A stretch of 64,000 nucleotides of DNA from contig CAMARR010000009.1 in NCBI GenBank assembly GCA_945860915.1, forward strand, positions 41,034 to 105,033, given 5' to 3'. A program made the translations under genes and the position numbers. Of this stretch, positions 7,403 through 52,804 are shown piece by piece; position 1 is the first letter of the stretch; each line of letters begins with the position of its first letter. The notes beneath the pieces were generated by a model. That model saw only the letters and a list, made by a program, of their open reading frames with translations. It was not told the origin of the DNA and ran no database searches. This DNA comes from Candidatus Kuenenia stuttgartensis. GTDB lineage: Bacteria; Planctomycetota; GCA-002687715; CAIWVZ01.

Positions 7403-7431
7403 GGATATCTCCCGGTCGGGGGTGAATCAGT

Positions 7432-8901: not shown

Positions 8902-9134
8902 GCAGTTTGGAGCCCCCGGGCCCCGCGGCGCCATAGGGCACCCGGGGAGGCGGCTTGTGGCGGCCTCCGGGAGGGGGGCAACCTAACTTACAAGGGCCGG
9001 ATGAACAACGAGACGGAACTCAGACCCTCCCCTTCTTGGGGCGGGGCCCTTCGAGACGTAGACTTTTCGCCCTTCCGTGCGCCCCGGACATACCGTCCGG
9101 ACGCCTGCGCAGCATCCTCCGGAGACCTCTTCCC

Positions 9135-10562: not shown

Positions 10563-10577
10563 GACTAAGGACGCGCC

Positions 10578-11177: not shown

Positions 11178-11197
11178 CCATACTGCGGCCGCGTTTT

Positions 11198-12436: not shown

Positions 12437-12457
12437 GGTGTCATGTCTCCTAAAGAC

Positions 12458-35881: not shown

Positions 35882-36060
35882 TCTGTAATGTCCAGCACCG
35901 AAGACTCTTCGAGGACCATGACGGCGAGGTCTCCATCCTCGATGCGATAGGCCCGACGCGTCGCGGGATCAGTCGAAACAAGCCTGTCCCCGTCTACCAC
36001 CAGAGTGGCCCGAGATTCGGGACAGCGCAAGATCGCAAGAAGGCCAGTGTCGATAGGCAT
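35842..36060 (-). CDS. Trm112/UPF0434 family small zinc-ribbon-like protein
   Basis: The track ORF runs to 36093; I prefer ATG 36060 (MPIDTGLLAILRCPESRATL...YRIEDGDLAVMVLEES), 72 aa. Confidence 0.7.
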   Translation of the reverse strand: MPIDTGLLAILRCPESRATLVVDGDRLVSTDPATRRAYRIEDGDLAVMVLEESSVLDITEWTALMTRHGVRM

Positions 36061-36211
36061 TGCCAGTCTCCAAACCCTGTGGCCAAGGGCCAATGGGGCA
36101 GAAGGAAGTTACCGGGCGCCGAATACCGGGCAAGGACTCCTAACTAGACCCGTTCGCCTCGCCGTTTCCGCTGCTAGGATACCCCCCCAACGAGGCGAGG
36201 GTTCATATCAC

Positions 36212-38449
36212 GTGAGTACCGACATCAGGATGAAGCAACTCCGCGAACACGCGGAGCGCGGCCGGGTCCAGCTCTTCGACGCGCTTTGGTCCGAAGTAAC
36301 GGAAGCAGGACACGACGACGTCCATGCGCTCGTCACAGCTATCGGCGGTTGGGAGACCGTCGGCAATTTCGGCAAAGCGGGAGAACTCCTTTCAACGCTT
36401 GCGAATCGCCTAGTCGAGCATCAACGCTTCGACCACGCGCTCGTGCCGCTCAGGCGAATGGCCGACATCGCACCAAAGGAACGATTCCTGCGGTACGGCC
36501 TCCTTACGATTTTCAACTGCCTCTACAAAGACGACCCGCGACTCCCGATCTACCTGCGCCATTCGGCGCTCGAAGAATCACTGGACATCAAGTCGTCTCT
36601 AGCCAAGATCGAAACCTACTTCGCCTACGACGTAGGGCGTTATGTCCATCACCTCACAGGATGGGGCGCGGGCCGGATCGTGGATGTAGACGCAGAAAAC
36701 GTGTCGGTTCTCGTCGACTTCCACGAGAAGAAGAGTCACCGCCTCACCATGGAGATGGCTCGTCGCATCTGCGACTTCATTGAAGCCAACGAACTCCGCG
36801 CCATGCGTCTCGATCGCATTGAGCAACTGCGCGCCATGGTCGAAGACGATCCAGTCGAGCTGATCCGCGTTGCGCTCCGATCGAAGCGCGGCAAGTCACC
36901 GCTTAAGGACATCAAAGAGCGACTGACCGATGGCATCATCCCCGGATCTGACTGGTCAAAATGGTGGACCAAAGCAAAAGTCAGGCTCAAGTCGGTACCC
37001 GACATCACCCTCGCACCTGGAACAAATCCGGTGGTCGAGCTCACGGCCGGCACCCGAAATTACCCAGAAAACTGCCTTCGCGACCTTCGCATGCTCGATG
37101 GCGACGGGAAGCGGGTCAAGTATCTGCGAGACCTCATCAAGGAGGCCCAGACACACGAAACCGACGGCGAGATCGCGCTGAAGGGTGTCGCGGCACTTCT
37201 CGTCGCCGAAGCCCCGATCATGTCGCTCGGATCCCGCATCTCACTTGCTTGTCTATTGCGCGACGCCAAAGCTGTCTACCCATCCGTCGAAGTTCCGGAG
37301 TCCCTCACGCTCGCCCAAGTTGCGACGGATCAGGCAGCGGTTCTCGTCGCGCTCCCAAGCATCCCGGTCGTCTCGCACCGCATCGAAGCACTTCGCGTGC
37401 TGCGTGAGCGCGGCGTCCGTGACTGGCAAGACCTTTATAAAGAAGTCATCCTGCGGGGCGAGTCCGAAACCGCCGAGGAGTGCCTCTCGGATCTCACGCG
37501 TTCGGGCAAGACGGAGTTCGTTAACAGTCTCGTCGATGCCATCGTCGCGAGATACCGCGACTTCCCCATGGCGTTTACAGCGCTCGTCAAGGCTCAGCTC
37601 TCGGACCGACTCCCAGAGGGCATTCACCGCCTACCGAAGACTGTAATCCTTGAGAGAGTCCTTCACCTTCACGATGCCGTGTGGCGACGTGACTTGCGCA
37701 ATCCGGATTCGGAGCTCAAACGCGCGCTGAAGATCCTCGAAGGCATCTTGACTTCAAAGAACTTCGAGCTCGTTCGCGATGCCATCGCCACATCGACCGA
37801 GCCGGAGGGAACAAACCTCGCGACGGTGCTCCGTTCCAACCGGAGCATCTCGGAGGACATTCAGAACAAGTCCTTCGCTGCCATGCTGCGAACACGCCCG
37901 TCGCTCGGCCGCATCACGACCGAGGAGGCTCCCGAGACCGATCTCGTCGCTCTCGACCCGAACGTCCTTTACACAACGGAAGTCGGATTGGCTCGCCGCC
38001 AACGTGAATACGAGCACATTTCGAGCGTCGAATTGCCCGAAGCCGCAGCAGACAAAGGTCGCGCCGCCGAACAGGGTGACTTGAGCGAGAACTTCGCGTA
38101 CACCGCAGCGATAGAGAAGATGGGGCAGTTGTCACGCAAGGCTGAGGAGATCGCGAGCGAACTTTCGAAGGCCCGAATTGTGAACGAACCGCTCACGGAC
38201 TTCGACCGAGTCACGATCGGCGCAAAAGTCGCGCTAAGCGACGGCGAGCGCAAGATCGCCTATACCATCCTTGGTCCATGGGAAGCCGACCCCGAGCACG
38301 GGATCCTCTCGTATCAATCGCCCCTCGGTCGTGCGATGCTCGGCAAGGAAGTTGGTGCCACGTTCAACGTCGAAGGCAACGCGACCCAGTGGAAGGTCGA
38401 TGCAATCGCTGACGGACTCGCAGCATTCCTCTCTCGCTCAAATAGCTAA
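36212..38449 (+). CDS. long-form GreA-like transcript cleavage factor (~580-aa N-terminal extension + complete GreA module)
   Basis: The track ORF starts at 36005; the likely start is GTG 36212 or ATG 36230 (MKQLREHAERG). The C-terminal ~160 aa carry the GreA coiled-coil tip motif GDLSENFAYTAAIEKMGQL and the FKBP-like CTD (VTIGAKVAL..ILGPWEADPEHGILSYQSPLGRAMLGKEVG). Confidence 0.7.
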   Translation: MSTDIRMKQLREHAERGRVQLFDALWSEVTEAGHDDVHALVTAIGGWETVGNFGKAGELLSTLANRLVEHQRFDHALVPLRRMADIAPKERFLRYGLLTIFNCLYKDDPRLPIYLRHSALEESLDIKSSLAKIETYFAYDVGRYVHHLTGWGAGRIVDVDAENVSVLVDFHEKKSHRLTMEMARRICDFIEANELRAMRLDRIEQLRAMVEDDPVELIRVALRSKRGKSPLKDIKERLTDGIIPGSDWSKWWTKAKVRLKSVPDITLAPGTNPVVELTAGTRNYPENCLRDLRMLDGDGKRVKYLRDLIKEAQTHETDGEIALKGVAALLVAEAPIMSLGSRISLACLLRDAKAVYPSVEVPESLTLAQVATDQAAVLVALPSIPVVSHRIEALRVLRERGVRDWQDLYKEVILRGESETAEECLSDLTRSGKTEFVNSLVDAIVARYRDFPMAFTALVKAQLSDRLPEGIHRLPKTVILERVLHLHDAVWRRDLRNPDSELKRALKILEGILTSKNFELVRDAIATSTEPEGTNLATVLRSNRSISEDIQNKSFAAMLRTRPSLGRITTEEAPETDLVALDPNVLYTTEVGLARRQREYEHISSVELPEAAADKGRAAEQGDLSENFAYTAAIEKMGQLSRKAEEIASELSKARIVNEPLTDFDRVTIGAKVALSDGERKIAYTILGPWEADPEHGILSYQSPLGRAMLGKEVGATFNVEGNATQWKVDAIADGLAAFLSRSNS

Positions 38450-38470
38450 CCTCGGGTGCGAGCTGCGACG

Positions 38471-39133
38471 TCACACGGACGTCGCGGCTTGCCGCACGTG
38501 ATTCGCAGCCCGATTAGGTGCGAAACTCCTTCGCAGTGTGGTGAGAGCCTCGGCGAACCCGCCACACAGCACTGCTCCCGCTGGCAGAATCGCCCCGCGG
38601 TGATTCGATACGGCACTCCCACCGACCATGATGAGCGCCCGAGGCGCCCGACGCCGCAATTTAAGCAGCGTGTCAGGCAGTCCGCGCCATTCAGATTCAA
38701 GGCCTATCGACACGGCGACGACATCGGGTACCGCCCCGCAGAAAATGTCTCCATCGAAATCCGTCGGATGAAGGGAATCGGCGCGATACCCCTCCGCCAA
38801 AAGAAGGTGAGACAGTAGATCCGCCGCGAGTGTGTGACCGTTTGCTGGTGTCACTAGGACCACCGCGCTTCGTCCGTTAATTTGCGTCGATTTTCTTGGT
38901 GCGACGGCCCGAGCAAGTTTGGCTAGTCGACGGTAGATAGCACCGACTTTCACCCCGCGGATCTCGTCGAGGGCCGCTGCCTCACCTAATCGTGCGAGCG
39001 AAGTGACCAGCGCGTTGTCGACCCATGTAGTGAATCCAACCGAGGCTACCGACGCCTCGACGCGCGCTCGGAGCAACGAGTCATCTCCTGCTTCGGCCAA
39101 TTCGAGAAGTTGCGAGGTTTTGGTCAGGGGCAT
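38471..39133 (-). CDS. B12-binding-domain-like (Rossmann) protein with helical N-terminal cap; motif degenerate
   Basis: 220 aa. The pattern AVVLVTPANGHTLAADLLSHLLLAEGYRADSL..PDVVAVSIGLES..LLKLRRRAPRALIMVGGSAV follows the cobalamin-binding domain layout, but the DxHxxG motif reads NGHTLA. The N-terminal ~90 aa are helical but lack the usual W/EH residues. Confidence 0.4.
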   Translation of the reverse strand: MPLTKTSQLLELAEAGDDSLLRARVEASVASVGFTTWVDNALVTSLARLGEAAALDEIRGVKVGAIYRRLAKLARAVAPRKSTQINGRSAVVLVTPANGHTLAADLLSHLLLAEGYRADSLHPTDFDGDIFCGAVPDVVAVSIGLESEWRGLPDTLLKLRRRAPRALIMVGGSAVSNHRGAILPAGAVLCGGFAEALTTLRRSFAPNRAANHVRQAATSV

Positions 39134-39202
39134 CCTAGGCTCGTCGGCCTAAACCGGCCCGACCAAACACCTTTCGACCAAACGACCGTCGAAACTTGAC
39201 TT

Positions 39203-41224
39203 TCAGCGCAGGAAGTACCCCTGGGCGCGCAGAGAGTCGGCAATGCGAACTGCCGTCGGGTCGTCTTGGACCTCGATGATGGTGTCGGTGATGCGTTCAC
39301 CCGCAATCGCTCGAAACTCGCGAATTCGCAGGGCAGAATCGAGCGCCTGCTTAGACAGGGCGCGGACGAGGATGACGCGCCGAACCTCCAACACTGTCAC
39401 GGCGTTGCCCCATGATTCGATCGACGCCGACACGCCCTGTGGCACCGGATATCGAGCGTGTTTGCGCAACGTCGCCAACATGTCTTCCACCGATGTACCT
39501 GCCGCGATCGCCTCCTGAACGGATCGCTCCGAAATGCGGTAATGGAGAGTCACGTCAGACTTTTCGCGACGCGCAAAACGGCCTAGGCGATGCAAGGTCT
39601 CGATCTCGACTCCCTCGGGATAGACAATGACCTCAAAGTCCGCCATGACAATCAGGCCGCCACCGACCGGTGCGGCGGCGTCGCTTGCCGCTCCGAGAAC
39701 ACCCGCACCGAGGCGGCTCAGTCGAACCCCAATCGGACCCATCTCAGGGACATACGTGTCCGAGAGTCCGGCGAGGGACAGGCGCTCAGTCGCGAATTGA
39801 ACAAGCTCGCGCGACAGAACTCCGGGAGTCACCAGAGGTGGAACCGGCGCGTATTGGTACCGACGTTGGAATCGTTCTGCGGAACTTCGCTGGTCGATCG
39901 TCGCGAAGTAGTGATTGCGAGCGAGATGTGCCACGCGACGCACATCCACCCATCGGCCCGCAGCCACATCGCGCAACATCGTCAAGAAAATGCGCCTAAG
40001 GCGCGTCTGGTGAAACTCACTACGAGTCCCCCGCAGGTCCTCCTGAACCTGCTGCAACAAGAGGTGCGCCCGCTCGATTGGACCCTGCTCCTCAAACTGC
40101 TCCCACGCCGGACGGGCGCGTAGCCGCTGGTCCTCGTCGACCTTCGTAAACCCCCGCGCAGCGAGGAAGCCGAAGAGGAAATCCATGACGTCTTCCGGCG
40201 GCAACGGTCTGGCCCCCGGACTCAAGATCTCAGACTCCATCTTGCGCACCGTCGCACGATAGAGCGCTCCTTCGAGCGTACACCGAACACTGTGGTGATC
40301 TAGGAACGCGCGAATACTGGTGAGGTCCGAGAGCGGATCAGCAGATCCCTCGGGTTCCTCGTCGAGGACGAGTTCAAGACCGTCGGCGGTCCACCCACGA
40401 GCCACTTCGCCGAAGATGATGAGCGATCCGGGCTTGAACTGGACGCCGATGTCGGCGAGGTCGCCTGTGAATATCGTCCCAAGAAATCGTGATTCGAGCG
40501 CCTCCTGCCATGCAACGACCTCCTGCGGGCGAAGTTCCATGCGTTCGAGCTGAGCGATGTCGAGCAGGCCGCCGTGTTCATCGAGGGCCCGGGTAACCGC
40601 GTCCCGAATCGCAGAGTCGTCAATGCTCGCGATCGCTGCCTCAACGCGGGGACGCAATGCGAGCTCTGCACAGACCTTTGCACGGTCGGAGACCAATCCT
40701 GCATCTACACCAGCAACACGCAGTCTCGCCACAACCGTATCGCGGGACATTGTCTTCAGAAAACCCCGCAGCGTGAACCACCCCTCAAGGGTCCTAGGTG
40801 ATCCATCCAACACCGATGACAACGTCGGAATAAGTCCTTCAGGAATGCGCCACACGGACTCCTGATACCGCACCCAGCTCTTATCGCGCTCCTCCGATAG
40901 AAAACCGCGCGCGCGAAGTTCGGCAGCGGCCGCTTCGGGTTCGAGCCCTCGGAATGAATCAGGTGCGTTGCGGTCGCGGAGTGCCTTCGCGGCGATGGCG
41001 TGGTCATCTTGTGAAAGCACGTGGGCCAGAAGATCACGAAGCGGCTTCGCCAAATCCTTGACACGACTCGCCACGATGTCGGCATCGGACATGAGACGAA
41101 GGACAGCGTCTTTGAGGTCAACGTCGTCGCGCGGTCGCTCTTCACCGGGCGGTGCCCAATATCTCCACGCTTCCCGCAGGTCGGCGCGGCTGAGCTTGTC
41201 CAAGGGTGAAGGAGGAGGAGTCAT
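39203..41224 (-). CDS. XPB-associated large protein (helicase-associated, Helicase_C_3-like C-terminal domain)
   Basis: The track ORF begins at TTG 41233, overlapping the XPB stop; the first ATG is at 41224, 5 nt after the stop. No catalytic motif was recognised. The C-terminal segment ..HYRISERSVQEAIAAGTSVEDMLATLRKHARYPVPQGV.. parallels the XPB N-terminal ..TYRITPLSLWNAAGVGLDAAAILDFLDIHAIARVPREV.. Confidence 0.55.
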   Translation of the reverse strand: MTPPPSPLDKLSRADLREAWRYWAPPGEERPRDDVDLKDAVLRLMSDADIVASRVKDLAKPLRDLLAHVLSQDDHAIAAKALRDRNAPDSFRGLEPEAAAAELRARGFLSEERDKSWVRYQESVWRIPEGLIPTLSSVLDGSPRTLEGWFTLRGFLKTMSRDTVVARLRVAGVDAGLVSDRAKVCAELALRPRVEAAIASIDDSAIRDAVTRALDEHGGLLDIAQLERMELRPQEVVAWQEALESRFLGTIFTGDLADIGVQFKPGSLIIFGEVARGWTADGLELVLDEEPEGSADPLSDLTSIRAFLDHHSVRCTLEGALYRATVRKMESEILSPGARPLPPEDVMDFLFGFLAARGFTKVDEDQRLRARPAWEQFEEQGPIERAHLLLQQVQEDLRGTRSEFHQTRLRRIFLTMLRDVAAGRWVDVRRVAHLARNHYFATIDQRSSAERFQRRYQYAPVPPLVTPGVLSRELVQFATERLSLAGLSDTYVPEMGPIGVRLSRLGAGVLGAASDAAAPVGGGLIVMADFEVIVYPEGVEIETLHRLGRFARREKSDVTLHYRISERSVQEAIAAGTSVEDMLATLRKHARYPVPQGVSASIESWGNAVTVLEVRRVILVRALSKQALDSALRIREFRAIAGERITDTIIEVQDDPTAVRIADSLRAQGYFLR

Positions 41225-41229
41225 CGCAT

Positions 41230-42939
41230 TCAACTACCGATTCGCGACTTCGCAACGAGTGCATCGCCGCTGACAACTTCGTAAGGATACCCCTGCTCGG
41301 CAAGAAAGAGCTGACGGTGTGCCGCGAACTCAAGGTCCCGCGAAGCCTCTGTCACCACAGCGTAAAACACCGCGCCGCCCCCGTCTTTCTTCTTCCGAAG
41401 AATACGCCCTAAACGCTGCGCCTCCTCTTGACGCGAACCGAACGTTCCGCTTACTTCAATTGCGACATTTGCGTCGGGAAGATCGATCGCAAAATTTGCG
41501 ACTTTCGAGACCAGAAGAACCGGGATCTCGCCGTCACGAAATGCGGCGTAAAGGCGGTCCCGTTCGGGATGTGGAGTCTTGCTTGTAATGAGTGGGACTC
41601 CGAGGATCCCCTTCAAAAGATGAAGCTGCCGTAGGAAGAGCCCGATTACCAACACTCTGTCACCGGCATGGCGAGCAATCAGTTCTCGAATGACTGGGAT
41701 CTTCCCTTCATTCTCTGATGCAATGCGAAACTGCTCCCTTCGGTCGGCCAGTGCATATCGATCGCACAACTCCTCGGCGAGTGACACCCGCACCTCAACG
41801 CAGCGCGCCTCGGCGATGTGCCCCTTGCGTTCGAGTTCCTTCCACGGCAGGTCATAACGACACGGGCCGACAAGGCTGTACACATCCGCCTCTTTCCCAT
41901 CCTCGCGGAGGAGGGTTGCGGTCAGACCAAGTCGTCGTCGCGCCTGGAGTTCTGCTGTGACACGAAACACCGGTGCCGGAAGCAAATGGACTTCGTCGTA
42001 AATGACCAATCCCCAATTGTTCCGGTGGAATAGGTCAAAGTGCGTAAATGGGTCCGACTGAGACTTCCGCCAAGTAAGGATCTGATAGGTCGACACCGTG
42101 ACAGGGCGAATCTCCTTGGCCTCACCCGTGTACTCGCCAATCTCGGATGGCTCGAGCGTCGTGCGTTCGGTGAGCTCACGTATCCACTGGGCCACGGAGG
42201 TCCGATTGCTGGTCAACACTAAGGTCTGGGTCTGGTAACGCTCCATAACAAGCAACCCGACGAGCGTCTTCCCCGCACCGCACGGCAACACGATGACCCC
42301 CGATCCCCCACGCTCCGTTCCACCACACCAAAACGCATCCGCTGATGTATGTTGATAGTCCCGCGCTTCGAAGGGTTCGCGTGAGGCTCTGAGCTCCTTA
42401 CGCAGTTGGAACGGGAGTGCATCACCTGCGGTGTACCCAGCCAAATCGTCGACGGGAAATCCAGCCTTGACCAAGGCCTGCTTGATTTCGCCACGATGAG
42501 ACGGGGGAACCAGCACATGGCCGTCCTCAAGTATCGCCACCATTTCGCGAACGCGGGGTGCATCAAGGACGGCAGATCGGAGGTCAGGATCGATGTCGAG
42601 GAGGAGTGCGCCCTCTTTTCGAATTAGCCGCACACGTCCGGTTCTGGACAAGATGTCCTCGACGAACATCCGGACTTCCCTCGGGACCCTCGCGATAGCG
42701 TGGATATCCAAGAAGTCGAGGATCGCTGCCGCGTCGAGCCCAACTCCTGCGGCATTCCAGAGGGAAAGCGGAGTGATTCGATAGGTGTGGAGGTGATCAG
42801 GACTCTTGAGAAGATCGGCAAAACGAGCAAGCCCACGCCGGCAGGCCTCCGCGCCCTTGGCGTGAAGGTCGAGAAGCACAGACCGGTCGCGCTGAACGAC
42901 CAGAGGCTTTGAATCAAGACTTGTTGGCGCCTCGTCCAT
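41230..42939 (-). CDS. XPB/Rad25/Ssl2-type SF2 DNA helicase
   Basis: 569 aa. N-terminal damage-recognition-like domain, Walker A LPCGAGKT, DEVH box IYDEVHLL, TATLLREDGKE (the RED motif characteristic of XPB), and a C-terminal helicase lobe. The ATG at 42939 lies 26 nt inside the 3' end of the UvrA-fusion gene. Confidence 0.85.
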   Translation of the reverse strand: MDEAPTSLDSKPLVVQRDRSVLLDLHAKGAEACRRGLARFADLLKSPDHLHTYRITPLSLWNAAGVGLDAAAILDFLDIHAIARVPREVRMFVEDILSRTGRVRLIRKEGALLLDIDPDLRSAVLDAPRVREMVAILEDGHVLVPPSHRGEIKQALVKAGFPVDDLAGYTAGDALPFQLRKELRASREPFEARDYQHTSADAFWCGGTERGGSGVIVLPCGAGKTLVGLLVMERYQTQTLVLTSNRTSVAQWIRELTERTTLEPSEIGEYTGEAKEIRPVTVSTYQILTWRKSQSDPFTHFDLFHRNNWGLVIYDEVHLLPAPVFRVTAELQARRRLGLTATLLREDGKEADVYSLVGPCRYDLPWKELERKGHIAEARCVEVRVSLAEELCDRYALADRREQFRIASENEGKIPVIRELIARHAGDRVLVIGLFLRQLHLLKGILGVPLITSKTPHPERDRLYAAFRDGEIPVLLVSKVANFAIDLPDANVAIEVSGTFGSRQEEAQRLGRILRKKKDGGGAVFYAVVTEASRDLEFAAHRQLFLAEQGYPYEVVSGDALVAKSRIGS

Positions 42940-45900
42940 GACGTTGCTTCGGTCTGACTTTCACGGGTGTGACTTTGGGATCAACAAGAAAGCGGCCCGT
43001 GTGAGAATTTGGATTTTGCGCGATGTCTTCCGGTGTTCCACATGCAACGACATAGCCGCCCGCGTGACCACCTTCCGGTCCAAGATCAATCACATGATCG
43101 CAGGCGCGGATGACATCCATGTTGTGTTCAATCACTAGCACCGTATTCCCCGCCTCTACGAGTCGTCGCAGCACGACAACCAACTTGGCAACGTCGTCCA
43201 TATGAAGACCTGTAGTCGGTTCATCGAGTAGATACAGCGTACGCCCGGAAGAACGGCGCGCGAGTTCACGAGCAAGTTTGATTCGCTGAGCCTCCCCACC
43301 AGACAACGTCGTCGCGGACTGCCCCAATTCGATATACCCCAAACCCACGTCCTCTAGCAACTGCATCGGACCTGCCACTCGGCGGTGGTTGGCGAAGAAG
43401 GCCACAGCCTCTGAAACTTCCAAGCATAGAACGTCGGCGATTGTCTTGCCTTTGAATTCGACGGCGAGAGTCTCGGCGTTGTATCTCTTTCCCCTGCAAG
43501 CATCACAGACGATCCAGACGTCGGGCAGAAAGTGCATCTCCACCTTAATACTGCCACGTCCATCGCACGCCTCGCAGCGACCGGCTCCAACGTTGAACGA
43601 GAACCTACCCGGTCCATATCCACGTTGCCGTGCAAGCGGGACTTCGGCAAAGATCGCTCGAATTTCATCAAACACCTTGGTGTACGAGGCGGGGTTGGAC
43701 TTCGGAGAAGACCCAATCGGTGCTTGGTCCACGACGATGCAATCTTCAATGTGCTCTGCGCCTCGAAGACCGCCCAACCCTTCCAACTTGACTCGCCGAC
43801 GACCTGTCGACTGTGCAAGGGCGGGCGCAAGGGTATCCATGACGAGCGAAGACTTGCCCGACCCGGAGACGCCCGTCACGGCGACAAGTACGCCGAGCGG
43901 TATCTCGACGTCGATCCCCTTAAGATTGTTTGCGGTGACGTTTTCCAGAATCAACTTATTGCCGTTGCCGACAAGTCGCTCGGCAGGACGCCGAATCGAT
44001 TCGGTCCCGCGCAGGTAGCGTCCGGTTAGCGTGTCGGCTTCGTCGATGAGCTGGCGTGGTGTCCCGGTAAACACGACGGCGCCGCCGTGCTTGCCCGCTC
44101 CTGGTCCGATGTCGATCACATGATCAGCGCGTTCGATCGTGTCGCGATCGTGCTCAACCATGACCACCGTGTTCCCAAGGTCACGAAGCCCCTCTAGGGT
44201 TGAGATAAGTCGGTCACTGTCTCGGGGATGTAATCCGATCGTCGGTTCGTCTAGGACATAGATGACGCCGGTCAAGCGATTACCAATCTGCGTGGCAAGC
44301 CTGATGCGCTGAGCCTCACCGCCCGACAGGGTTCCTGCACCACGAGACAACTCGAGGTAGCCAAGCCCGACATCCTTGAGGAACTTCAGACGATTCCGGA
44401 CCTCACGAAGAGGTTGTTCGGCGATGATTGACTCGTTGGCATCAAGCACAAGTGTCTCAAACCACGACGCGGCGCCCTCGACCGTCATCGAGCTCACGTC
44501 TGCCAATACCCTCGACGCAAATCGCACCGACCGGTAAGCCGGCTTGAGCCGTTCGCCGTTGCATGATCGACAACGTTCACTTCGCATCACGCGCCCAAGG
44601 ATCTCTCGCCATTCCTCGTCCTCTGACGTCGAGAACCATTCCTCTATGTAGGCGCAAAATCCCTTCCACTTTGTGGTCACAGACCACGAGGACTCGGACG
44701 TTTCGGACTTCGACGCAAATGTCACGTCTAGCGGGTCCTCGCTGCCCTTTAACACCGCCTTCTTGAAAGCGGCAGGTAGCGCACTCCATGGCTTCTTGAG
44801 GTTGACTCCGCGAGCTTTGGCGAGCCGCTCGACGACTCCGCGAAACCAGCCGTCACTTCGAGCAAGGAAATCTCCCGGCTTCTCAATGAGGGCGCCATCG
44901 AACAATGGTCGATCCGGATTGGCGATCAGTAGATCGGTATTGCAGCTGAGTTCGACTCCGAGTCCGTGACAGGTCTCGCACGCTCCGCTGTGGCTGTTGA
45001 AAGAGAAATGCCGCGGCGTCAGGTCGTCGCCGAGAATGAAACCGCACTCGACGCACGCCGGGCGTAGCGCGAACCAAGACCGCTTGTCGTCGGTCGACTC
45101 GAATGCTGCATATCCCCTTCCTTGATGAAACGCCTGGGCAAACGAGTCAAGGAGCCGTGACTTGCCCTTTTCCGAAATGACCGCGCGGTCGATGACGAGA
45201 AAGACTTCCTTCGCCTTGGCAAATGACGGCAACTTCTCGTCCAGACGAACTTCAGATCCATCCACCTGCAGGCGCATGAAGCCCGCTTCGACCGCGGGTT
45301 TCACCAACGCGACGACATCCGAAGGCTTCTTTGCGGCGAGCCCGAGTGGGGAGCCCTTCATGTAGAGCGGACTCAAGATCCGCCCCTTGACGCCAGAAGA
45401 AGTCATCAACGACTTGACCACACGATCGGGAGACCATGACCTCGCTTCCTTGGAACACGTCGGGCAATGCGGGACGCCTACGCGTGACCAAAGCAATCGG
45501 AAGTAGTCGTGAATTTCCGTCGTGGTGGATACCGTCGACCTCGGATTACGACTCGCGTTCTTCTGGTCGATCGCGATTGCCGGCGCCAACCCTTCAAGTG
45601 AGTCGATGGGAGGTCGGTCCATGCGACCTAGGAACTGGCGTGCATAGGTCGAGAGGCACTCGACAAATCGTCGCTGTCCTTCTGCGAACAACGTGTCGAA
45701 AACGAGCGACGTCTTCCCGGACCCCGAAGGGCCCGTCACGACTGTCATACGACCTGCCGGGAAGCTGACATCGATGTTCTTGAGATTATGAAGGCGTGCT
45801 CCCTTCAAGATGATGTCGCCATCGATCGCAGTGTCTCGAACCTCTCGCACGCCTTTTTTCTTTTGCTCCGGAGGACAAATTGCTTCCCGCAGCATGGCAG

Positions 45901-48742
45901 CCGTCGCACTCTCGGTATGCCGAAGCATGGCATGGTAGGGCCCGGAGAAAATGAGCTGCCCGCCTCCGCGCCCACCTTCGGGCCCCATGTCGATGATCCA
46001 GTCGGCACTCGCAATCACGTCGAGATGGTGCTCGATGACCACTACGGAGTTTCCTGCATCCACGAGCGCGTGCAGCGCCTCGAGAAGGCGGCGCACATCG
46101 ACGAAGTGCAACCCGGTCGTCGGCTCGTCTAGAACGTAGATGGTCCGTCCGGTGGGTGGTCTCTGAAGTTGACTCGCGAGCTTGACGCGTTGAGCTTCTC
46201 CTCCGGACAACGTCGTCGAAGGCTGTCCTAGGGCGACATATCCTAGTCCGACTTTCGACAACATCTCAAGACCACGACGAATCTTCGGGTGATTTCCGAA
46301 GAACGCTAGGGCCTCGTCAATCGTCATTTCGAGGACATCGGTGATCGACTTCTCGCGATACTGGATTTCAAGAGTCTCGGGATTGAATCGCCGTCCCTCA
46401 CATAAGTCGCAAGGAACCTCGACGTCGGCGAGAAACTGCATCTCGACAACTTTGACTCCAGCTCCCCCACAGGTTTCACATCGACCACCCTTTACGTTGA
46501 AGGAGAAACGCCCCGGCGCATAGCCGCGCGCCTTGGCCTCCGGGAGTTCCGAGAACAATCCGCGAATTTCATCGAAGATCTTGGTGTAGGTCGCGGGATT
46601 CGACCTCGGAGTCCGGCCAATGGGAGACTGATCAATTTCGATGACCTTGTCGAGGTGCTCGACACCGTCAATTCCGTCGTGCTCACCGGGAGTGTCCTCG
46701 GCTCGATGCAGGGTGTGAGCAAGCGACTTCCGGAGAATGTCATTGATGAGCGTGCTCTTGCCAGACCCAGAGACACCTGTCACTGCGACGAGGACCCCGA
46801 GCGGGATCGGGACATCAATGTCCTTGAGGTTGTTGGCGCGGGCGCCCCGAACAACCAATCGCTTCTCTCCCGCGACGCGTCGCACTGCTGGAGGCGTGAT
46901 GGCCTCACGCCCCGACAGGAATGCGCCGGTGATGCTCCGAGGCGCGTTCATGACGGCGGCTAGGTCGCCTGCCGCGACGATTTCGCCGCCATTGCGGCCA
47001 GCACCGGGTCCAACGTCTACGACCCAATCGGAGGCTTCCATCGTCTCGCGGTCATGCTCAACGACAATCACCGTATTGCCCACGTCGCGCAATCGCTCGA
47101 GAGTATCGATCAAGCGCCTGTTGTCACGCTGATGGAGGCCGATAGACGGTTCATCGAGAACATACAGAATTCCACGCAACCCGGCGCCAACCTGAGTTGC
47201 CAATCGGATGCGTTGAGACTCGCCGCCCGACAGCGTCGACACTCCTCGATCCATCGAAAGGTAGCCAAGTCCCACGTTGGTTAGAAACCGCAGCCGAGCC
47301 TTGATCTCTTTAAGAATCGGATCGCCGACAGGAGCCTCGCGCGAATCAAACTGAAGCGTTGCAAAGAACTCCGTTAGGTCCTCGACGGTGAGTCGCCCCA
47401 AATCGCCGATGTGGCGTCCTCGGAAGCTGACGGCTAGCGCCTCCTTGCGCAAACGCGTACCAAGACAGTCCGTGCACGGGGTCTCGGCCATGTACGCTTT
47501 GATGGACTGTCCCTTCAATCGTGCGTACACAGCGCGCAGAATCGGCATGATTCCTCGCCACGGCTTGCGCTCAACGCTACGGACCTTCAGGCGCTCTCCG
47601 TCGATCGAGCGCTGGAAGGTAATGGGGGTGTCGGGATCACCCTGCAAGATCACCTTCCGCTGCTTTTCCGTGAGTTTGCGCCAAGGGACATCCCACGGGA
47701 CATTCAGCCCTTCGCAGACGGCTTCGAGAATATCCGCTCCCATATGGTGACGCAGCGACCACGATGCGCCATGACTTGGTGCAATGGCCCCCTGGGCGAG
47801 ACTCAAGGTGGTGTCGGGAATAACGAGCCTCGGATCAACGTCCTCGCGTTCTCCCAAGCCGTCGCACGATGGACATGCCCCATGCGGACTATTGAACGAA
47901 AACGTTCGCGGTTCCATCTCAGGGAGACTGACGTCGCAATCAGGACAGGCTGCTCGCGACGAAAATGACTCCGGGACGCCATCATCGGTCTCAAGAACTC
48001 CGACGACACCGCCACCGAGTTTGAGTCCGTTTTCGACCGCCTCGGCGAGACGTGAACGGCGTTCCTCTTCGATCTTGATGCGATCGAGGACAACTTCGAT
48101 CGTGTGACGTTCGAACCGCGCAAGTTCAATCGGTTCGTCGAGTCGCCGAACGAGTCCGTCGATGCGCGCACGGACGTACCCTTTCATCCGCAGTTCCTCG
48201 AGTTCCTTGCGGTACTCGCCCTTGCGGTCCTTCACGATGGGCGCCAGCACCATGACGGATTTACCAGCGCGGCTCGCCATCACTCGGTCGGTGATGCGGT
48301 CCGATGTTTGGGCCGCCACCGGCTTCCCACAGGAGGGGCAGTGAGGTGTGCCCATGCGGGCGAACATGAGGCGCAGGTGATCGTGGATCTCGGTGACTGT
48401 GCCAACCGTCGACCGTGGGCTCCGATTGACGGTCTTCTGATCGATTGAAATCGTCGGGGATAATCCCTCAATATGCTCCACTTTGGGCTTCTCGGTCCGG
48501 CCCAAAAACTGGCGCGCATAGGAAGAGAGCGATTCGACGAAACGACGCTGTCCCTCCTGGAAAATCGTGTCAAAGGCCAAGGATGACTTCCCGGACCCCG
48601 AGACACCCGTCATCGCGATCAACGCCCCACGAGGCAGACGGATGTCCACCCCTTTCAGGTTGTGTTCACGCGCACCAATGACCACGATCTCGCGCTGAGA
48701 GTTCTTCAACGGTCCACCTAGAGGGAATCTGCGGCGCCACAC
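42914..48742 (-). CDS. tandem UvrA-UvrA fusion protein (two complete excinuclease ABC subunit A units in one 1942-aa chain)
   Basis: GTG start. Four Walker A motifs (GVSGSGKSS, GVSGSGKST, GPSGSGKTS, GVSGSGKSS) and four LSGGE signature motifs. Each unit has the UvrA zinc modules (unit 1 CPSC..CPDC, CPSCDG, CETCGG..CDLCEG; unit 2 CPTC..CVEC, CETCHG, CEACDG..CDACRG). The junction is near nt 45850-45900 (PPEQKKKGVREVRDTAIDGDIILKGARLHNLK). Confidence 0.9.
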   Translation of the reverse strand: MWRRRFPLGGPLKNSQREIVVIGAREHNLKGVDIRLPRGALIAMTGVSGSGKSSLAFDTIFQEGQRRFVESLSSYARQFLGRTEKPKVEHIEGLSPTISIDQKTVNRSPRSTVGTVTEIHDHLRLMFARMGTPHCPSCGKPVAAQTSDRITDRVMASRAGKSVMVLAPIVKDRKGEYRKELEELRMKGYVRARIDGLVRRLDEPIELARFERHTIEVVLDRIKIEEERRSRLAEAVENGLKLGGGVVGVLETDDGVPESFSSRAACPDCDVSLPEMEPRTFSFNSPHGACPSCDGLGEREDVDPRLVIPDTTLSLAQGAIAPSHGASWSLRHHMGADILEAVCEGLNVPWDVPWRKLTEKQRKVILQGDPDTPITFQRSIDGERLKVRSVERKPWRGIMPILRAVYARLKGQSIKAYMAETPCTDCLGTRLRKEALAVSFRGRHIGDLGRLTVEDLTEFFATLQFDSREAPVGDPILKEIKARLRFLTNVGLGYLSMDRGVSTLSGGESQRIRLATQVGAGLRGILYVLDEPSIGLHQRDNRRLIDTLERLRDVGNTVIVVEHDRETMEASDWVVDVGPGAGRNGGEIVAAGDLAAVMNAPRSITGAFLSGREAITPPAVRRVAGEKRLVVRGARANNLKDIDVPIPLGVLVAVTGVSGSGKSTLINDILRKSLAHTLHRAEDTPGEHDGIDGVEHLDKVIEIDQSPIGRTPRSNPATYTKIFDEIRGLFSELPEAKARGYAPGRFSFNVKGGRCETCGGAGVKVVEMQFLADVEVPCDLCEGRRFNPETLEIQYREKSITDVLEMTIDEALAFFGNHPKIRRGLEMLSKVGLGYVALGQPSTTLSGGEAQRVKLASQLQRPPTGRTIYVLDEPTTGLHFVDVRRLLEALHALVDAGNSVVVIEHHLDVIASADWIIDMGPEGGRGGGQLIFSGPYHAMLRHTESATAAMLREAICPPEQKKKGVREVRDTAIDGDIILKGARLHNLKNIDVSFPAGRMTVVTGPSGSGKTSLVFDTLFAEGQRRFVECLSTYARQFLGRMDRPPIDSLEGLAPAIAIDQKNASRNPRSTVSTTTEIHDYFRLLWSRVGVPHCPTCSKEARSWSPDRVVKSLMTSSGVKGRILSPLYMKGSPLGLAAKKPSDVVALVKPAVEAGFMRLQVDGSEVRLDEKLPSFAKAKEVFLVIDRAVISEKGKSRLLDSFAQAFHQGRGYAAFESTDDKRSWFALRPACVECGFILGDDLTPRHFSFNSHSGACETCHGLGVELSCNTDLLIANPDRPLFDGALIEKPGDFLARSDGWFRGVVERLAKARGVNLKKPWSALPAAFKKAVLKGSEDPLDVTFASKSETSESSWSVTTKWKGFCAYIEEWFSTSEDEEWREILGRVMRSERCRSCNGERLKPAYRSVRFASRVLADVSSMTVEGAASWFETLVLDANESIIAEQPLREVRNRLKFLKDVGLGYLELSRGAGTLSGGEAQRIRLATQIGNRLTGVIYVLDEPTIGLHPRDSDRLISTLEGLRDLGNTVVMVEHDRDTIERADHVIDIGPGAGKHGGAVVFTGTPRQLIDEADTLTGRYLRGTESIRRPAERLVGNGNKLILENVTANNLKGIDVEIPLGVLVAVTGVSGSGKSSLVMDTLAPALAQSTGRRRVKLEGLGGLRGAEHIEDCIVVDQAPIGSSPKSNPASYTKVFDEIRAIFAEVPLARQRGYGPGRFSFNVGAGRCEACDGRGSIKVEMHFLPDVWIVCDACRGKRYNAETLAVEFKGKTIADVLCLEVSEAVAFFANHRRVAGPMQLLEDVGLGYIELGQSATTLSGGEAQRIKLARELARRSSGRTLYLLDEPTTGLHMDDVAKLVVVLRRLVEAGNTVLVIEHNMDVIRACDHVIDLGPEGGHAGGYVVACGTPEDIAQNPNSHTGRFLVDPKVTPVKVRPKQRHGRGANKS

Positions 48743-48800
48743 CTGGGATCCCGACCCACCATCGTGAATCGTGAGATGCTACAAGATCCGCGAGGCCGCG

Positions 48801-51731
48801 TCACTTTGATTCGGGAGGCAAAACCGGCGCGTCCATCACCACGCTCCGGAGGACCGTCCCGGGCGGAAGTCGAAGATCGATGCCTGGATTCGCTCCGATT
48901 ACCGGGAGTCCAGATGCCCGTAGAACGGCATCGCCTATGCGCAGCCTCGTCAGTGCAGGGTCCTTGCCGGCGTCCATGCGGATGGTCACAGGCATTCCCC
49001 GCGCCGGAATGACGAAAGGATCACCCCTTTGGAGCACATTGGATCGCAAGTCCTTCCAAGAGATTCCTGCGACCGCCCCCTTCGCCACGGTTCGCACGGC
49101 GACCAAGTGCTTCTCCAAACCATGAAGTGACATTCCGGCGAATGGAGCGCCATCACGAAGCTCGCCAATCAGGAGCGCGCTATACCCGCCGCATCGCAAC
49201 GCAAAAAACGGAAACGCAACTTCTGCGGGAGGCATCTCGAATGTCACTTCGACCGATACTGCCGCGTCTCTTACCGGGTCGGGCAACGGAATGCGCAATG
49301 CAGGCGCCTCTTCCGGAATCAACGCCAGATCGCCCCAGCGGCCGGGCCACAAGAGACCCGTCGCAGTGGTGGTCGCACCATCGGGGAGCACGACACCATC
49401 GCGCGCGCCGCCCTCCTTGAAATCGAATTCTAGGCGCACCCGACCGGTCGCCACGTCAATGTGCGTCGCGGCACGTCCGAAGGGCCGCAGACGCGAGCCC
49501 CTTGCTTCGAGATCCCTTGCCCGAGTGGCCAAAGCGACGATCTCGTCGCGATGCTCCTTGAGAAACGAGGTTCCCGCGAGCACCGGCCGCGTGAGCAGTC
49601 CTGCCGCCGCCTCGGCCGCGGCAAGATAGGCGCCCGAATCCAGCAGCCGTCGAGCCGATAGGAGCGACGACATCGCCTCCTTTTCGAAAGCAGTTCGGTA
49701 GTTTGATGTCGCGCCGGCAATCCCGGCTTCGACAAGACTCGCGACCGCCTCTCGCACGACACCGACCGCCGCGTCTTTCAGACGATCACGGGCAGCGAGA
49801 TCATCACCATCCCAATGAAGGAGAAGCGCCACGGCGACGGGGTCAGGCGTCCTTCCGAACAGGGCGAGCCCAGCCTCCGCGTTGACTGCGGACAGATCCT
49901 CGGGACTCCATGTCTCTTCAAGTCCGTCGGTGGTTTTTCTGAACACGAGTAAACCGCCGCGTCGTCCGATCAACTCACGCGGGGTCGGCAACGCCCCGGG
50001 TGCGCCGGACTTGCGTGACACCAAAGTCATCATTGATTTTGGAGGAACGCCATTTCCGACGGCCTGAATCCAAGCGTCTCGCATAGAGGCGGCCTCCTCG
50101 GCGCGCATAAGCAATGCGACCGCAATTGCCCTCGACGACATCGTCTCCTCGAGGGGGCCCGCCGCTTCTGCTCGTGCAATTCCACTTCGTATGGCCGCGA
50201 TGATCGCGCCCCGCCGCGCAGTATCGACGGGCCTCTCTCCTCGGGCGAGAACCGAGGGAAGCCCATCGAGAACTGCTGCGAGTCCCACGGCAGCTTCACG
50301 CACGGATTCTCTCAGGTTTCCAAGTCGAGCCACTGCTCCCGGCACGCGCTCGTCATCGGTAATCGACGTAAGCCGACGCTCCGCGGCCCGGGCCTCCGCG
50401 AGTTTCCCTTCTCCAAGAAGCGTCCTCACCTGTAGCAGCGCTGTAGTAAATGAGCCAATTGCGGACTCGGCGAGGGCGGACTCGGCCCGTCGGCGGGCAG
50501 TATCGACCCTTCGCCGACGCACGACTCCCGCGTCGTCAGGCAAGGACGCCGTGATCGCGTCAAGCCTCGATGTTAAATCGTGAGCCTTCCACGTCGGAGC
50601 CTGCGGGTTCGTCACGAGACCATCCAATCGAACGACAGTCTCCTCAACCCAGTCATCGAGGATTGCGGCGCGATCTCCCGGCTCCGCCTCGTCGGCTCGC
50701 GATTCGGGTGCCGCTCGCGAGTCCGGAACCGCTTGCATGGACGTCGGCCCGGCCAAAGGCGCAGACTTCGGAGCGATGCTCGGTTTGGGATCGACTCGAG
50801 GGCGATTCCATGGCGACCACCACACGAGGCCGGCGACGACCGCTAGCGTCGTTGCGACCGCTGCGATTCGCCGTCGCCGTCCGGCGGGCGACAGAATCGT
50901 CTTCCCCTCGAGGGCCCCGCGCAACGCCTCGGCCATCATGAGGGCTTCGGGAAACCGATCGGAAGGGTTTTTTGCGAGCGCCCGGGTCACAACCGCAATG
51001 AATGCCCTCGGGACATGCGGAACGATGTCGCTTAACGGCCGGGGAGAGTCGTAAAGAAGGTGCGTGAGGGTTTCGGCAACTGTCGCGCCCCCGAAGGGCG
51101 GAACGCCCGACACCGCCGCGTAGAGCGTGGCTCCGAGGCTAAAGAGATCCGCTCGCCCATCCACTGCCTGTGGGTGGAGTGCCTGCTCCGGCGCCATGTA
51201 GCGAGGCGTCCCGACAGTACCCCCTTCGTGGGTCATCTTCGGGTCGCTCTCGCGACGTGCCATCCCGAGATCGAGGACCCGAGTGCGACCATCGGGGCCG
51301 ACAATGAGGTTCGATGGTTTAAGGTCTCGATGCACGACGCCTCGTATGTGAGCGTGCGCGAGTGCGTCGAGAACATCGAGCGCCAACCCTACAGCCCGTC
51401 TCCAAGGCAGTCGGCGCTCGGCCTTCAGCACGTCCTCGAGAGTCTTCCCCTCGACAAGCTCCATAGCGAACCAGCAGAGCGGTCCGGCCTCGCCGGCATC
51501 GATCCCGCGCGCGATCAGCGGATGATCCAAGGCACCCGCAGTCCGCGCTTCGCGGAACAGCCTCAGCGCACGACGTCGCCCTTCGGGACCCTCTGAATCG
51601 AGCACCTTGAGCGCAACAAGACGGCCGAGCGCAACTTGAGTGGCCCGATACACGGTCGCGCTCGCACCCTTCCCGAGCACCGCTTCAATGCGGAATCCTG
51701 GAATGTCGGGAAAGGGGTGCGAAGTCGTCAT
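48801..51731 (-). CDS. membrane Ser/Thr protein kinase with large non-cytoplasmic C-terminal region
   Basis: The track ORF runs to 51767. I prefer ATG 51731 (MTTSHPF), 5 nt after the upstream stop. Hanks motifs GKGASATVY, VALKVL, HRDLKPSNL, DLGMAR and GTPRYMAPE. One TM helix (IAAVATTLAVVAGLVWW) is followed by ~650 aa with no motif I recognise. Confidence 0.85.
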   Translation of the reverse strand: MTTSHPFPDIPGFRIEAVLGKGASATVYRATQVALGRLVALKVLDSEGPEGRRRALRLFREARTAGALDHPLIARGIDAGEAGPLCWFAMELVEGKTLEDVLKAERRLPWRRAVGLALDVLDALAHAHIRGVVHRDLKPSNLIVGPDGRTRVLDLGMARRESDPKMTHEGGTVGTPRYMAPEQALHPQAVDGRADLFSLGATLYAAVSGVPPFGGATVAETLTHLLYDSPRPLSDIVPHVPRAFIAVVTRALAKNPSDRFPEALMMAEALRGALEGKTILSPAGRRRRIAAVATTLAVVAGLVWWSPWNRPRVDPKPSIAPKSAPLAGPTSMQAVPDSRAAPESRADEAEPGDRAAILDDWVEETVVRLDGLVTNPQAPTWKAHDLTSRLDAITASLPDDAGVVRRRRVDTARRRAESALAESAIGSFTTALLQVRTLLGEGKLAEARAAERRLTSITDDERVPGAVARLGNLRESVREAAVGLAAVLDGLPSVLARGERPVDTARRGAIIAAIRSGIARAEAAGPLEETMSSRAIAVALLMRAEEAASMRDAWIQAVGNGVPPKSMMTLVSRKSGAPGALPTPRELIGRRGGLLVFRKTTDGLEETWSPEDLSAVNAEAGLALFGRTPDPVAVALLLHWDGDDLAARDRLKDAAVGVVREAVASLVEAGIAGATSNYRTAFEKEAMSSLLSARRLLDSGAYLAAAEAAAGLLTRPVLAGTSFLKEHRDEIVALATRARDLEARGSRLRPFGRAATHIDVATGRVRLEFDFKEGGARDGVVLPDGATTTATGLLWPGRWGDLALIPEEAPALRIPLPDPVRDAAVSVEVTFEMPPAEVAFPFFALRCGGYSALLIGELRDGAPFAGMSLHGLEKHLVAVRTVAKGAVAGISWKDLRSNVLQRGDPFVIPARGMPVTIRMDAGKDPALTRLRIGDAVLRASGLPVIGANPGIDLRLPPGTVLRSVVMDAPVLPPESK

Positions 51732-51736
51732 CTTCC

Positions 51737-52804
51737 TTAGTACTTCGCCATCACATACGCACGCCACTGTTCTTCGAATCCAGCGACTTCGACTCCGAAC
51801 ACTTCGAGAATCGCTTTCTCCTGAGCCGCTGTTTTCGCGGGCGTGTGTTCATAAACAACGGCCGCCGGCCAGAGACGTTTGACCGCCCCGATGAAGGCGC
51901 CGACCTTGCCAGGTCCTAGGCTCGCCATGTAGTCGATCATCGACCATGCCTTGCCGACTTCACCTGCGCCAAGCTCCGAAAGTTGCAAGGGAATGAAGTT
52001 CGCGAACGTCTTCAGTTGTCGCGACTTTGCAGCGGCTTTCACTGCGGTCTTCCATTTGGCGAACTGCAGGTCCGACAATTTTTCCAGTACCGCACCCGCA
52101 TCTGCGGCTCCGTAACGCTGCGCGCCGCCGGGCGAGAAGCAATAGCAGTTGGTGATGCCAAACACCCTCGCTTCGAGATAGGCGCCCATTCCTTCGCAAA
52201 GCCACGGTGGCGAGTAGTTCGAATTGAACTTGTACCGCTGGACGCAAAGATGCCCCGTCTCGTGTGCAGCAACATGCGCAAGTCCGACTGCATCCGAGGG
52301 CTTAAGATGCATGCCGATTAAACATCGCGGCGAATCGAACGGGAAGTAGGTCGAATTCGCCACCGCATCGCCCATTCCTGGGCGCCCCTTCGCCTTCTCA
52401 TACCAGTACCCAAGTTTCTTGTAGGATTCGGCCCCCGGCAGAATGACAAGGAGCGGCTTCTTGATGCCGAACATTTCCGCCGGGCCAGACACACCTGAGA
52501 TCTCCTTGAAGACTGCGAATGCCTTCTCGGCGCCATCGACAACAATCAATGTCTCATCTCGTGAGAGCGACGATGCGCAGTCGAAGACAGGGTGTTCAGA
52601 TGCCGACAGGCGCGCGCCGGTAGCCGCCGCAATTGAAGCGACTTCCTCTTCCAGCTCTTTCGCTATAGGCGGGGGCGGGGGTGGAGGAGCCGGCTTCGAC
52701 GCTAGTCCCTTGCCGACTGGAGGCTTCGTCTTCGGATCGGGCTTCTTGGGCGTTTGGGCAAGGACACCGCTTGCGAAGCTCGCAAGAACGACGAGCAGTG
52801 CCAT
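51737..52804 (-). CDS. secreted HExxH (gluzincin/MA-clan-like, DUF1570-reminiscent) protein
   Basis: The track ORF starts at TTG 52819. ATG 52804 gives the signal peptide MALLVVLASFASGVLAQ, followed by a Pro/Lys-rich linker. HVAAHETGHL with a downstream Glu (WLCEGMGAYLE). Confidence 0.55.
   Translation of the reverse strand: MALLVVLASFASGVLAQTPKKPDPKTKPPVGKGLASKPAPPPPPPPIAKELEEEVASIAAATGARLSASEHPVFDCASSLSRDETLIVVDGAEKAFAVFKEISGVSGPAEMFGIKKPLLVILPGAESYKKLGYWYEKAKGRPGMGDAVANSTYFPFDSPRCLIGMHLKPSDAVGLAHVAAHETGHLCVQRYKFNSNYSPPWLCEGMGAYLEARVFGITNCYCFSPGGAQRYGAADAGAVLEKLSDLQFAKWKTAVKAAAKSRQLKTFANFIPLQLSELGAGEVGKAWSMIDYMASLGPGKVGAFIGAVKRLWPAAVVYEHTPAKTAAQEKAILEVFGVEVAGFEEQWRAYVMAKY

Follow-up and report, generated by a model that had tools for sequence, protein, structure and literature searches.

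A tandem-fused UvrA in a Planctomycetota genome: two class I halves in one open reading frame and an apparent asymmetry of their UvrB-binding domains

The DNA analysed here, referred to as the window, is a stretch of 64,000 nucleotides (nt) from Candidatus Kuenenia stuttgartensis (GenBank assembly GCA_945860915.1, contig CAMARR010000009.1, positions 41,034 to 105,033). Its reverse strand carries, at 42914-48742, a single gene that encodes two UvrA units in one chain. This gene is likely to be the housekeeping UvrA of the organism, i.e. the damage sensor of the UvrABC system, in a tandem-fused form that would act as a single-chain pseudo-dimer. Each half has the architecture of class I UvrA, and neither belongs to class II. 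By sequence, the halves are not equivalent, and their asymmetry is concentrated in the UvrB-binding (docking) domain of the C-terminal half. The fused UvrA is genuine but not new, being a common and already published form of the protein in many Planctomycetota. The additions made here are modest: the docking domain of the C half departs systematically from that of the N half, and there are relatives, designated type B, whose C half has no insertion domain. The gene and its parts are located as follows (aa, amino acids; dN/dS, ratio of non-synonymous to synonymous substitution rates).

42914-48742, reverse strand: tandem-fused uvrA gene, 1,942 aa plus stop; 2551 bits with NF001503 and 2454 bits with TIGR00630, both models matching twice over their full length.
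45881-48697, reverse strand: N-terminal UvrA unit, the canonical class I half, residues 16-954; TIGR00630 1300 bits, 2r6f_A 1109 bits, clade N1 with support of 99.
45812-45880, reverse strand: inter-unit linker, residues 955-977, separating the two profile matches; weakest constraint of all stretches (dN/dS 0.40).
42986-45811, reverse strand: C-terminal UvrA unit, the faster-evolving half, residues 978-1919; TIGR00630 1158 bits, 2r6f_A 952 bits, clade C1 with support of 100, dN/dS 0.09.
47936-48340, reverse strand: N-half UvrB-binding domain with the cysteines of the first zinc module (Zn1), residues 135-269; Pfam UvrA_inter 119.7 bits, model positions 1-107 of 109; the RKGE motif and the Arg216 and Glu222 equivalents are kept.
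45044-45466, reverse strand: C-half UvrB-binding-like domain, residues 1093-1233; UvrA_inter 40.8 bits, model positions 29-107 of 109; fold predicted to be kept, surface diverged; dN/dS 0.17.
47465-47875, reverse strand: N-half insertion (DNA-binding) domain with Zn2, residues 290-426; Pfam UvrA_DNA-bind 73.2 bits; cysteines invariant.
44561-44980, reverse strand: C-half insertion domain with Zn2, residues 1255-1394; UvrA_DNA-bind 49.9 bits; dN/dS 0.07.

According to the listing of open reading frames (ORFs) and their translations, the gene is one frame of 1,942 codons with a GTG start and no internal stops. An earlier note, made from the letters of the window, had described an uninterrupted frame with four Walker A motifs, four LSGGE signatures and a doubled set of zinc modules, and all of these were recovered by a motif scan. 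The Walker A motifs stand at residues 46 (GVSGSGKS), 656 (GVSGSGKS), 1004 (GPSGSGKT) and 1624 (GVSGSGKS), and the LSGGE signatures at residues 504, 845, 1472 and 1813. Four Walker B motifs ending in Asp-Glu (residues ~531, 873, 1499 and 1841) and four H-loop histidines (563, 905, 1531 and 1873) complete the ATPase sites. Six zinc modules are present, three per half. The CxxC pairs of the N half are 135/266, 290/423 and 755/778, those of the C half 1093/1230, 1255/1391 and 1723/1746. The members of the first pair are separated by 131 residues in the N half and by 137 in the C half, in agreement with the 125-150 estimated previously. The two halves (approximately residues 1-962 and 963-1942) are 44% identical over 956 residues, and the similarity remaining between their DNA sequences is patchy, at 64-75%. 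The divergence noted before at both the nucleotide and the protein level is thus real.

Separate alignment of the halves with class I and class II proteins, as had been advised, assigned both of them to class I. The TIGR00630 equivalog model scores 1300.3 bits with the N half and 1158.1 bits with the C half, the curated cut-off being 729.8. Matches of this strength are well past anything attributable to chance. Residues 16-954 of the N unit cover positions 3-940 of the 943 in NF001503. The class I structure 2r6f_A aligns with the N half in a single stretch (1109 bits, residues 16-952 to 21-953) and with the C half in one stretch from end to end (952 bits). The class II structure 2vf7_A aligns only from about residue 280 (646 bits with the N half, 598 bits with the C half). 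The Pfam domains UvrA_inter and UvrA_DNA-bind were found in both halves, although the C-half UvrA_inter score of 40.8 bits is a partial match (cut-off 23.3). The end-to-end alignment with 2r6f_A, the restricted one with 2vf7_A and the occurrence of docking and insertion domains in both units together place both units in class I. Each half has two nucleotide-binding domains (NBDs) of the ATP-binding cassette (ABC) type, three zinc modules, a UvrB-binding domain, an insertion domain and a score at equivalog level.

The domain set of class I UvrA (Escherichia coli; Geobacillus stearothermophilus, 2R6F and 3UWX; Mycobacterium tuberculosis, 3ZQJ; Thermotoga maritima, 3PIH) is thus present in full in each half: NBD-I, NBD-II, the signature domains, three zinc modules, the UvrB-binding domain and the insertion domain. 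The functional residues K37, K646, G502, R712, R724, R730 and R216 of E. coli UvrA likewise have counterparts in each half. Unlike the class I proteins, the two protomers here are covalently joined and 44% identical, and the C-half docking domain is devoid of RKGE and Glu222. Class II proteins, such as Deinococcus UvrA2 (2VF7), DrrC and Ecm16 (7SH1), share with the halves the UvrA-type double ABC ATPase, the insertion domain and the Zn3 module. They have neither a UvrB-binding domain nor Zn1 (PMC5128194, PMC9328131). Both halves of the window protein carry the docking domain and the Zn1 cysteines, and 2VF7 scores roughly half of 2R6F; assignment to class II (UvrA2/DrrC/Ecm16) was therefore rejected. 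The view of the earlier note that both units keep a class I-like architecture is upheld by the 2R6F alignment and by Pfam. Its further premise that the docking inserts might be intact holds for the N half but not, in the canonical sense, for the C half, where the UvrA_inter score falls from 119.7 to 40.8 bits, RKGE is lost and Ala occupies the Glu222 position.

The junction had been expected at nt 45800-45950, and it was located at nt 45812-45880 (residues 955-977). An independently assembled genome of the same genus (G048) served for comparison of the junction and for dN/dS. Its contig has a single open frame across the junction, with 81% identity over residues 416-1422 and a linker of equal length but diverged sequence. 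Two complete UvrA units were found in 120 of 121 long homologues, which come from independent public assemblies. The linker of these homologues is 14-40 residues long with a median of 20 (counted beyond the equivalents of E. coli residues 1-940). A close homologue (P0006) is 82% identical to the window protein. Since the frame is open across the junction in the same genus, nearly all long homologues have two units and the short linker is conserved, an artefact produced by the merging of two genes is effectively excluded.

Conservation was evaluated with a set of 107 type A tandem relatives having both halves complete and with the list of functional residues of E. coli UvrA, including R216 and E222 of the interaction with UvrB and Mfd (PMC3025350). 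In both halves, the equivalents of Lys37, Lys646, Gly502, Arg712 and Arg216 are conserved in 100% of the relatives, as are the Walker B Asp-Glu, the H-loop His, the signature Gly832 and the cysteines of Zn2 and Zn3. The signature Ser488 is conserved in 96-99% and the Zn1 Cys120/Cys253 in 96-100%, and the positions of Arg724 and Arg730 are nearly always occupied by Arg or Lys. By sequence, all four ATPase sites, the six zinc modules and the DNA-binding arginines are accordingly intact. In the comparison with G048, the N part has a dN/dS of ~0.07 and the C part one of 0.09; within the C part, the UvrB-binding-like domain reaches 0.17 and the insertion domain 0.07, and the value of the linker is 0.40. 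These values are rough because dS lies at 1.6-2.0, i.e. near saturation. Judged from these comparisons, both halves are under purifying selection and neither is decaying. The earlier concern that one half might be a decayed duplicate lacking its ATPase and zinc motifs is not borne out.

The halves differ mainly in the docking domain. The identity of this domain to single UvrAs is 0.38 for N halves versus 0.26 for C halves, and the identity within each set is 0.51 versus 0.37. A lesser gap (0.49 versus 0.39) exists in the first part of NBD-II, and the remaining domains of N and C halves resemble single UvrAs to about the same degree. C halves have a variable, longer loop in place of the conserved RKGE motif of the docking domain. 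The Glu222 position is occupied by Glu in 47 of 107 C halves and by Ala in the window protein, and the Arg216 equivalent is found in 107 of 107. In the window protein, the N half thus keeps both the R216 and E222 equivalents, and the C half has Arg and Ala. The N-half docking domain is matched at sequence level by two chains of the isolated domain, 4dfc_B (97.5 bits) and 3fpn_A (69.6 bits); the same search with the C-half domain gave no match to either chain. The AlphaFold2 (AF2) model of residues 1080-1253, comprising the C-half docking domain, has a pLDDT of 90.7. Foldseek related this model to 3uwx_A (E 1.4e-11), to 3fpn_A (TM score 0.87, root mean square deviation 2.2 A, 19% identity) and to 4DFC. 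The model suggests that the fold of the domain has been retained while its surface has been remodelled. The proposal that the two halves have specialized is supported by a diverged C-half and a canonical N-half docking domain.

The genome is a metagenome-assembled genome (MAG) of 2.37 Mb and 87% completeness, in which the two halves are the only strong UvrA matches. In the relatives G099, G011 and G074 (92-97% complete), the two halves are also the only strong UvrA matches, two in each genome. Another contig holds canonical uvrB and uvrC genes together (985 and 499 bits, respectively). An Mfd-like frame of 1,088 aa, which matches the UvrB homology region, is found elsewhere in the genome. As the fused protein is the only UvrA detected and uvrB, uvrC and Mfd are present, a housekeeping sensor of nucleotide excision repair is the simplest reading of the gene.

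In the mechanism proposed, the N and C units, connected by the linker of ~20 residues, would pack head to head like the protomers of the UvrA2 dimer. One chain would then do the work of this dimer, and the concentration-dependent dimerization step would be removed. The two protomers would become permanently non-equivalent. The N half with its canonical UvrB/Mfd docking domain would be the main recruiter of UvrB. The docking domain of the C half probably binds UvrB or Mfd more weakly or in a different manner, or it might be partly dispensable. An obligate asymmetry between the N and C units fits with the type B relatives, which have lost the insertion domain in the C half only. Several points weigh against the housekeeping role in this form. 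The head-to-head packing within one full chain is an inference; a second UvrA is possible because the genome is just 87% complete; and the overlap of uvrA with a gene for an XPB-type helicase, together with the enrichment of XPB in genomes with fused UvrA, leaves room for an additional partner.

The fused family is a natural experiment in UvrA asymmetry: across more than 100 sequences, relaxation of the docking domain is seen only in C halves, and in the shorter relatives it is again only the C half that is without an insertion domain. This suggests that a 'dimer' might manage with a single docking domain and a single insertion domain, which bears on the debated loading of UvrB as UvrA2B2 or UvrA2B1.

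Two genes follow uvrA on the same strand and have to be considered in any alternative to this role.

41230-42939, reverse strand: gene for an XPB-type helicase of superfamily 2 (SF2); NF045503 779.8 bits, cut-off 610; 26-nt overlap between its start and the end of uvrA.
39203-41233, reverse strand: gene for an XPB partner of 676 aa with a fold like that of p52/Tfb2 of the transcription factor TFIIH and a C-terminal domain like the N-terminal domain (NTD) of XPB; PF13625 56.7 bits at residues 527-648; 4-nt overlap with xpb.

The AF2 model of the partner has a pLDDT of 90.7, and the best Foldseek matches are p52/Tfb2 chains (8EBT_D with E 5e-10, also 6TRS, 7ZS9 and 6NMI). The match probability is 1.0 over 520-555 aligned columns, with a global TM score of just 0.23-0.34. 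The sequence of the partner gave no Pfam match besides PF13625 and no match to sequences of the Protein Data Bank at E<=10. The arrangement resembles the XPB-p52 (Ssl2-Tfb2) pair of TFIIH in that an XPB equivalog is followed by a p52/Tfb2-like model ending in an XPB-NTD-like domain. Unlike in TFIIH, the partner cannot be assigned to the p52/Tfb2 family by its sequence, and the neighbourhood examined yielded no further subunits of TFIIH. A 2012 study of M. tuberculosis XPB stated that bacteria had yielded no homologue of p52 (PMC3353954). Binding between XPB and the partner is putative and is suggested by their conserved adjacency. Of the 151 genomes sampled in the phylum, 61 carry XPB, nearly always with the partner as the next gene downstream, with or without an adjoining uvrA (the pair occurs in ~57-61 genomes). 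In many, though not all, lineages uvrA heads a predicted operon with XPB and the p52-like partner, which provides a lead on the role of bacterial XPB. The pair may be the more interesting biology of this locus, but it lies outside the uvrA coordinates, and its functional link to UvrA is an inference.

These neighbours give rise to the idea of a hybrid pathway, in which the C-half docking domain recruits XPB or the p52-like partner instead of UvrB or besides it, and a TFIIH-like translocase opens the lesions. The canonical N-half domain would then load UvrB or take over from Mfd, while the C-half domain would attract the co-transcribed pair. If true, this would couple lesion sensing in bacteria to a TFIIH-like DNA opener and give bacterial XPB the function that it has long lacked. 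The idea is favoured by the overlaps of the three genes on one strand and by the divergence of the C-half docking surface, which exceeds that of any other part of the protein. XPB also lies directly downstream of the fused uvrA in 16-17 other sampled genomes of at least nine families, and it adjoined a single uvrA in none of the 11 genomes checked. XPB is commoner with fused UvrA (27 of 41 genomes) than in the other genomes (34 of 110), giving an odds ratio of 4.3 in which the kinship of the genomes is ignored. Finally, one MAG (GCA_046349655.1, contig JAXMBY010000086.1; locus L134, protein P0052) has at 5001-12539 an ORF of 2,512 aa in which uvrA, uvrA and xpb are joined in frame, followed by the p52-like partner. 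This arrangement occurs once among 120 long homologues. It is weak evidence because it comes from one MAG and the start Met of XPB is retained; a genuine fusion, the loss of a stop codon and faulty assembly are all conceivable explanations of the frame. In G004 and G044, the long frames surrounding XPB were judged to be not fusions but overlapping frames typical of high-GC DNA.

The comparison of genomes with and without XPB does not bear out the hybrid pathway. At least 14 genomes with fused UvrA have no XPB, and in many genomes with uvrA elsewhere the XPB-partner pair is conserved by itself. C halves that are equally diverged, devoid of RKGE and provided with the variable loop occur in XPB-less genomes (G008, G020, G040, G119 and Alistipes). 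When the C halves of XPB-adjacent, XPB-distant and XPB-less genomes were compared, no XPB-specific signature was detected. The loss of Glu222 does not track adjacency to XPB (7 of 18 versus ~2 of 12, p ~0.2), and both UvrB and UvrC are intact in this genome. The suggestion of the earlier note that the docking inserts were repurposed for XPB has therefore found no backing. Given the XPB-less fused genomes, the free-standing pair, the equal divergence of the C halves, the pattern of Glu222 and the fusion in a single MAG, the hybrid pathway, including the division of labour between the two docking domains, is considered unlikely. Less probable again is the pairing of separate chains (N:N, C:C or domain-swapped) into four-unit assemblies with no fold-back of the individual chain. 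The higher-order packing of M. tuberculosis UvrA in crystals may be cited in its favour, but this packing was itself considered non-physiological (PMC3167621), and there is otherwise no direct evidence for it. The conserved length of the linker argues against such pairing. So does the asymmetry, which recurs consistently in over 100 sequences and affects the C half only, including the loss of the insertion domain in type B; it is what an obligate N:C pair predicts. An origin of the gene in an assembly or frameshift error, or the degeneration of one half, might be suspected in any MAG. The open junction in the same genus, the complete units of the homologues, the 96-100% conservation of catalytic and zinc residues in both halves and the dN/dS of 0.07-0.09 make it very improbable. 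The tandem-fused housekeeping UvrA with one chain as a pseudo-dimer remains the preferred reading.

The fused form is widespread. Counting UvrA matches within open frames of at least 1,500 aa, it was found in at least 41 of the 151 genomes sampled across the phylum, and the rest of the listed genomes have single UvrAs of ~940-1,100 aa. It occurs in more than 100 independent assemblies, where its public name is plainly 'excinuclease ABC subunit UvrA [Planctomycetota bacterium]'. Two uvrA genes fused in one ORF of about twice the length of E. coli UvrA have been published for Tuwongella immobilis and Gemmata relatives (PMC8567305; Front Microbiol 2021, Fig. 13), and the proteome of Tuwongella was shown to contain UvrA, UvrB, UvrC and UvrD (PMC8567305). 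The published proteins come from the same phylum, have the same two-unit single ORF and are annotated simply as UvrA. They differ in their phylogenetic position: the window protein falls in group 1 of the trees described below, and those of Gemmata, Fimbriiglobus and the Pirellulales fall in group 2. The earlier note had treated tandem UvrA as something mentioned in genome surveys; this understates the case, as it is the common form in much of the phylum, routinely receives the annotation UvrA and is in print (PMC8567305).

A literature search found no UvrA class scheme that covers tandem forms, and nothing relevant on UvrA together with XPB and Planctomycetes or on chlamydial UvrA. NCBIfam contains a double-length 'excinuclease ABC subunit A' model of 1,809 positions with the same architecture (NF001885 / PRK00635). 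The existence of this curated model means that the double-length architecture is recognized in annotation pipelines. The family is presumably chlamydial UvrA. Membership of the window protein was rejected, since its 1,318.9 bits fall short of the cut-off of 3,054; the scores of type B relatives are 1,213-1,333 bits.

In some genomes, the fused form coexists with other UvrA copies. G008 carries a fused (1,779 aa) and a single (958 aa) UvrA, and G094 apparently has two fused copies plus one single. The extra single copies L098 and L100 have very long branches in the tree.

The age of the duplication was approached with two trees, one built with FastTree from 133 units and the other with IQ-TREE (LG+C20) from 48 units. 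Both trees unite the N halves of the window protein and its relatives in one clade (support 99) and their C halves in another (support 100), so that the duplication is older than the spread of this group. This accords with the statement of the earlier note that the duplication is not recent. Group 1 includes the window protein, many Planctomycetota MAGs, the type B proteins and proteins of Alistipes and Fibrobacteres. Group 2 consists of the tandem UvrAs of Gemmata, Fimbriiglobus and Pirellulales, in which the N and C halves are sisters. Taken at face value, the unconstrained trees would suggest a second, separate fusion event for group 2. However, the approximately unbiased (AU) test rejected neither a clade of all N halves (p 0.40) nor a clade of all C halves (p 0.49). 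Two independent fusions are not claimed because this result is compatible with a single origin.

Type B tandem UvrAs are ~1,770-1,820 aa long, lack the insertion domain in the C half (E. coli residues ~286-403) and cluster with the group of the window protein. They were found in other planctomycetes and outside Planctomycetota, in records of Alistipes and Fibrobacteres. Type B loci are L103-L106 (in G008, G038, G069 and G140), L022 (a Fibrobacteres MAG), L045 (Alistipes onderdonkii) and L019. A further locus, L020, from a bin named 'Senegalimassilia sp.', encodes at 8001-13283 a tandem UvrA of 1,766 aa that is 89% identical to that of A. onderdonkii L045. Its contig probably derives from Bacteroidota and was binned by mistake with an actinobacterial genome.

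Other genes lie around the uvrA operon in the window. An ORF of 814 aa at 36005-38449 on the forward strand has GreA/GreB N- and C-terminal domains in its last ~160 residues only, preceded by a long N-terminal extension without a Pfam match. A scan of 38000-52500 for promoters and terminators returned fewer sites than expected by chance and was uninformative on the limits of the operon. At 48801-51767 on the reverse strand lies the gene for a Ser/Thr protein kinase of 988 aa, whose long C-terminal region has no match in Pfam; the gene has the same orientation as uvrA and ends 59 nt before it. Among the related loci checked, no kinase was found beside uvrA except for one weak match on the opposite strand in L023 (Gemmata). 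Further upstream of uvrA, the reverse strand carries at 52816-54645 a gene for an FHA-GAF-sigma54-activator protein.

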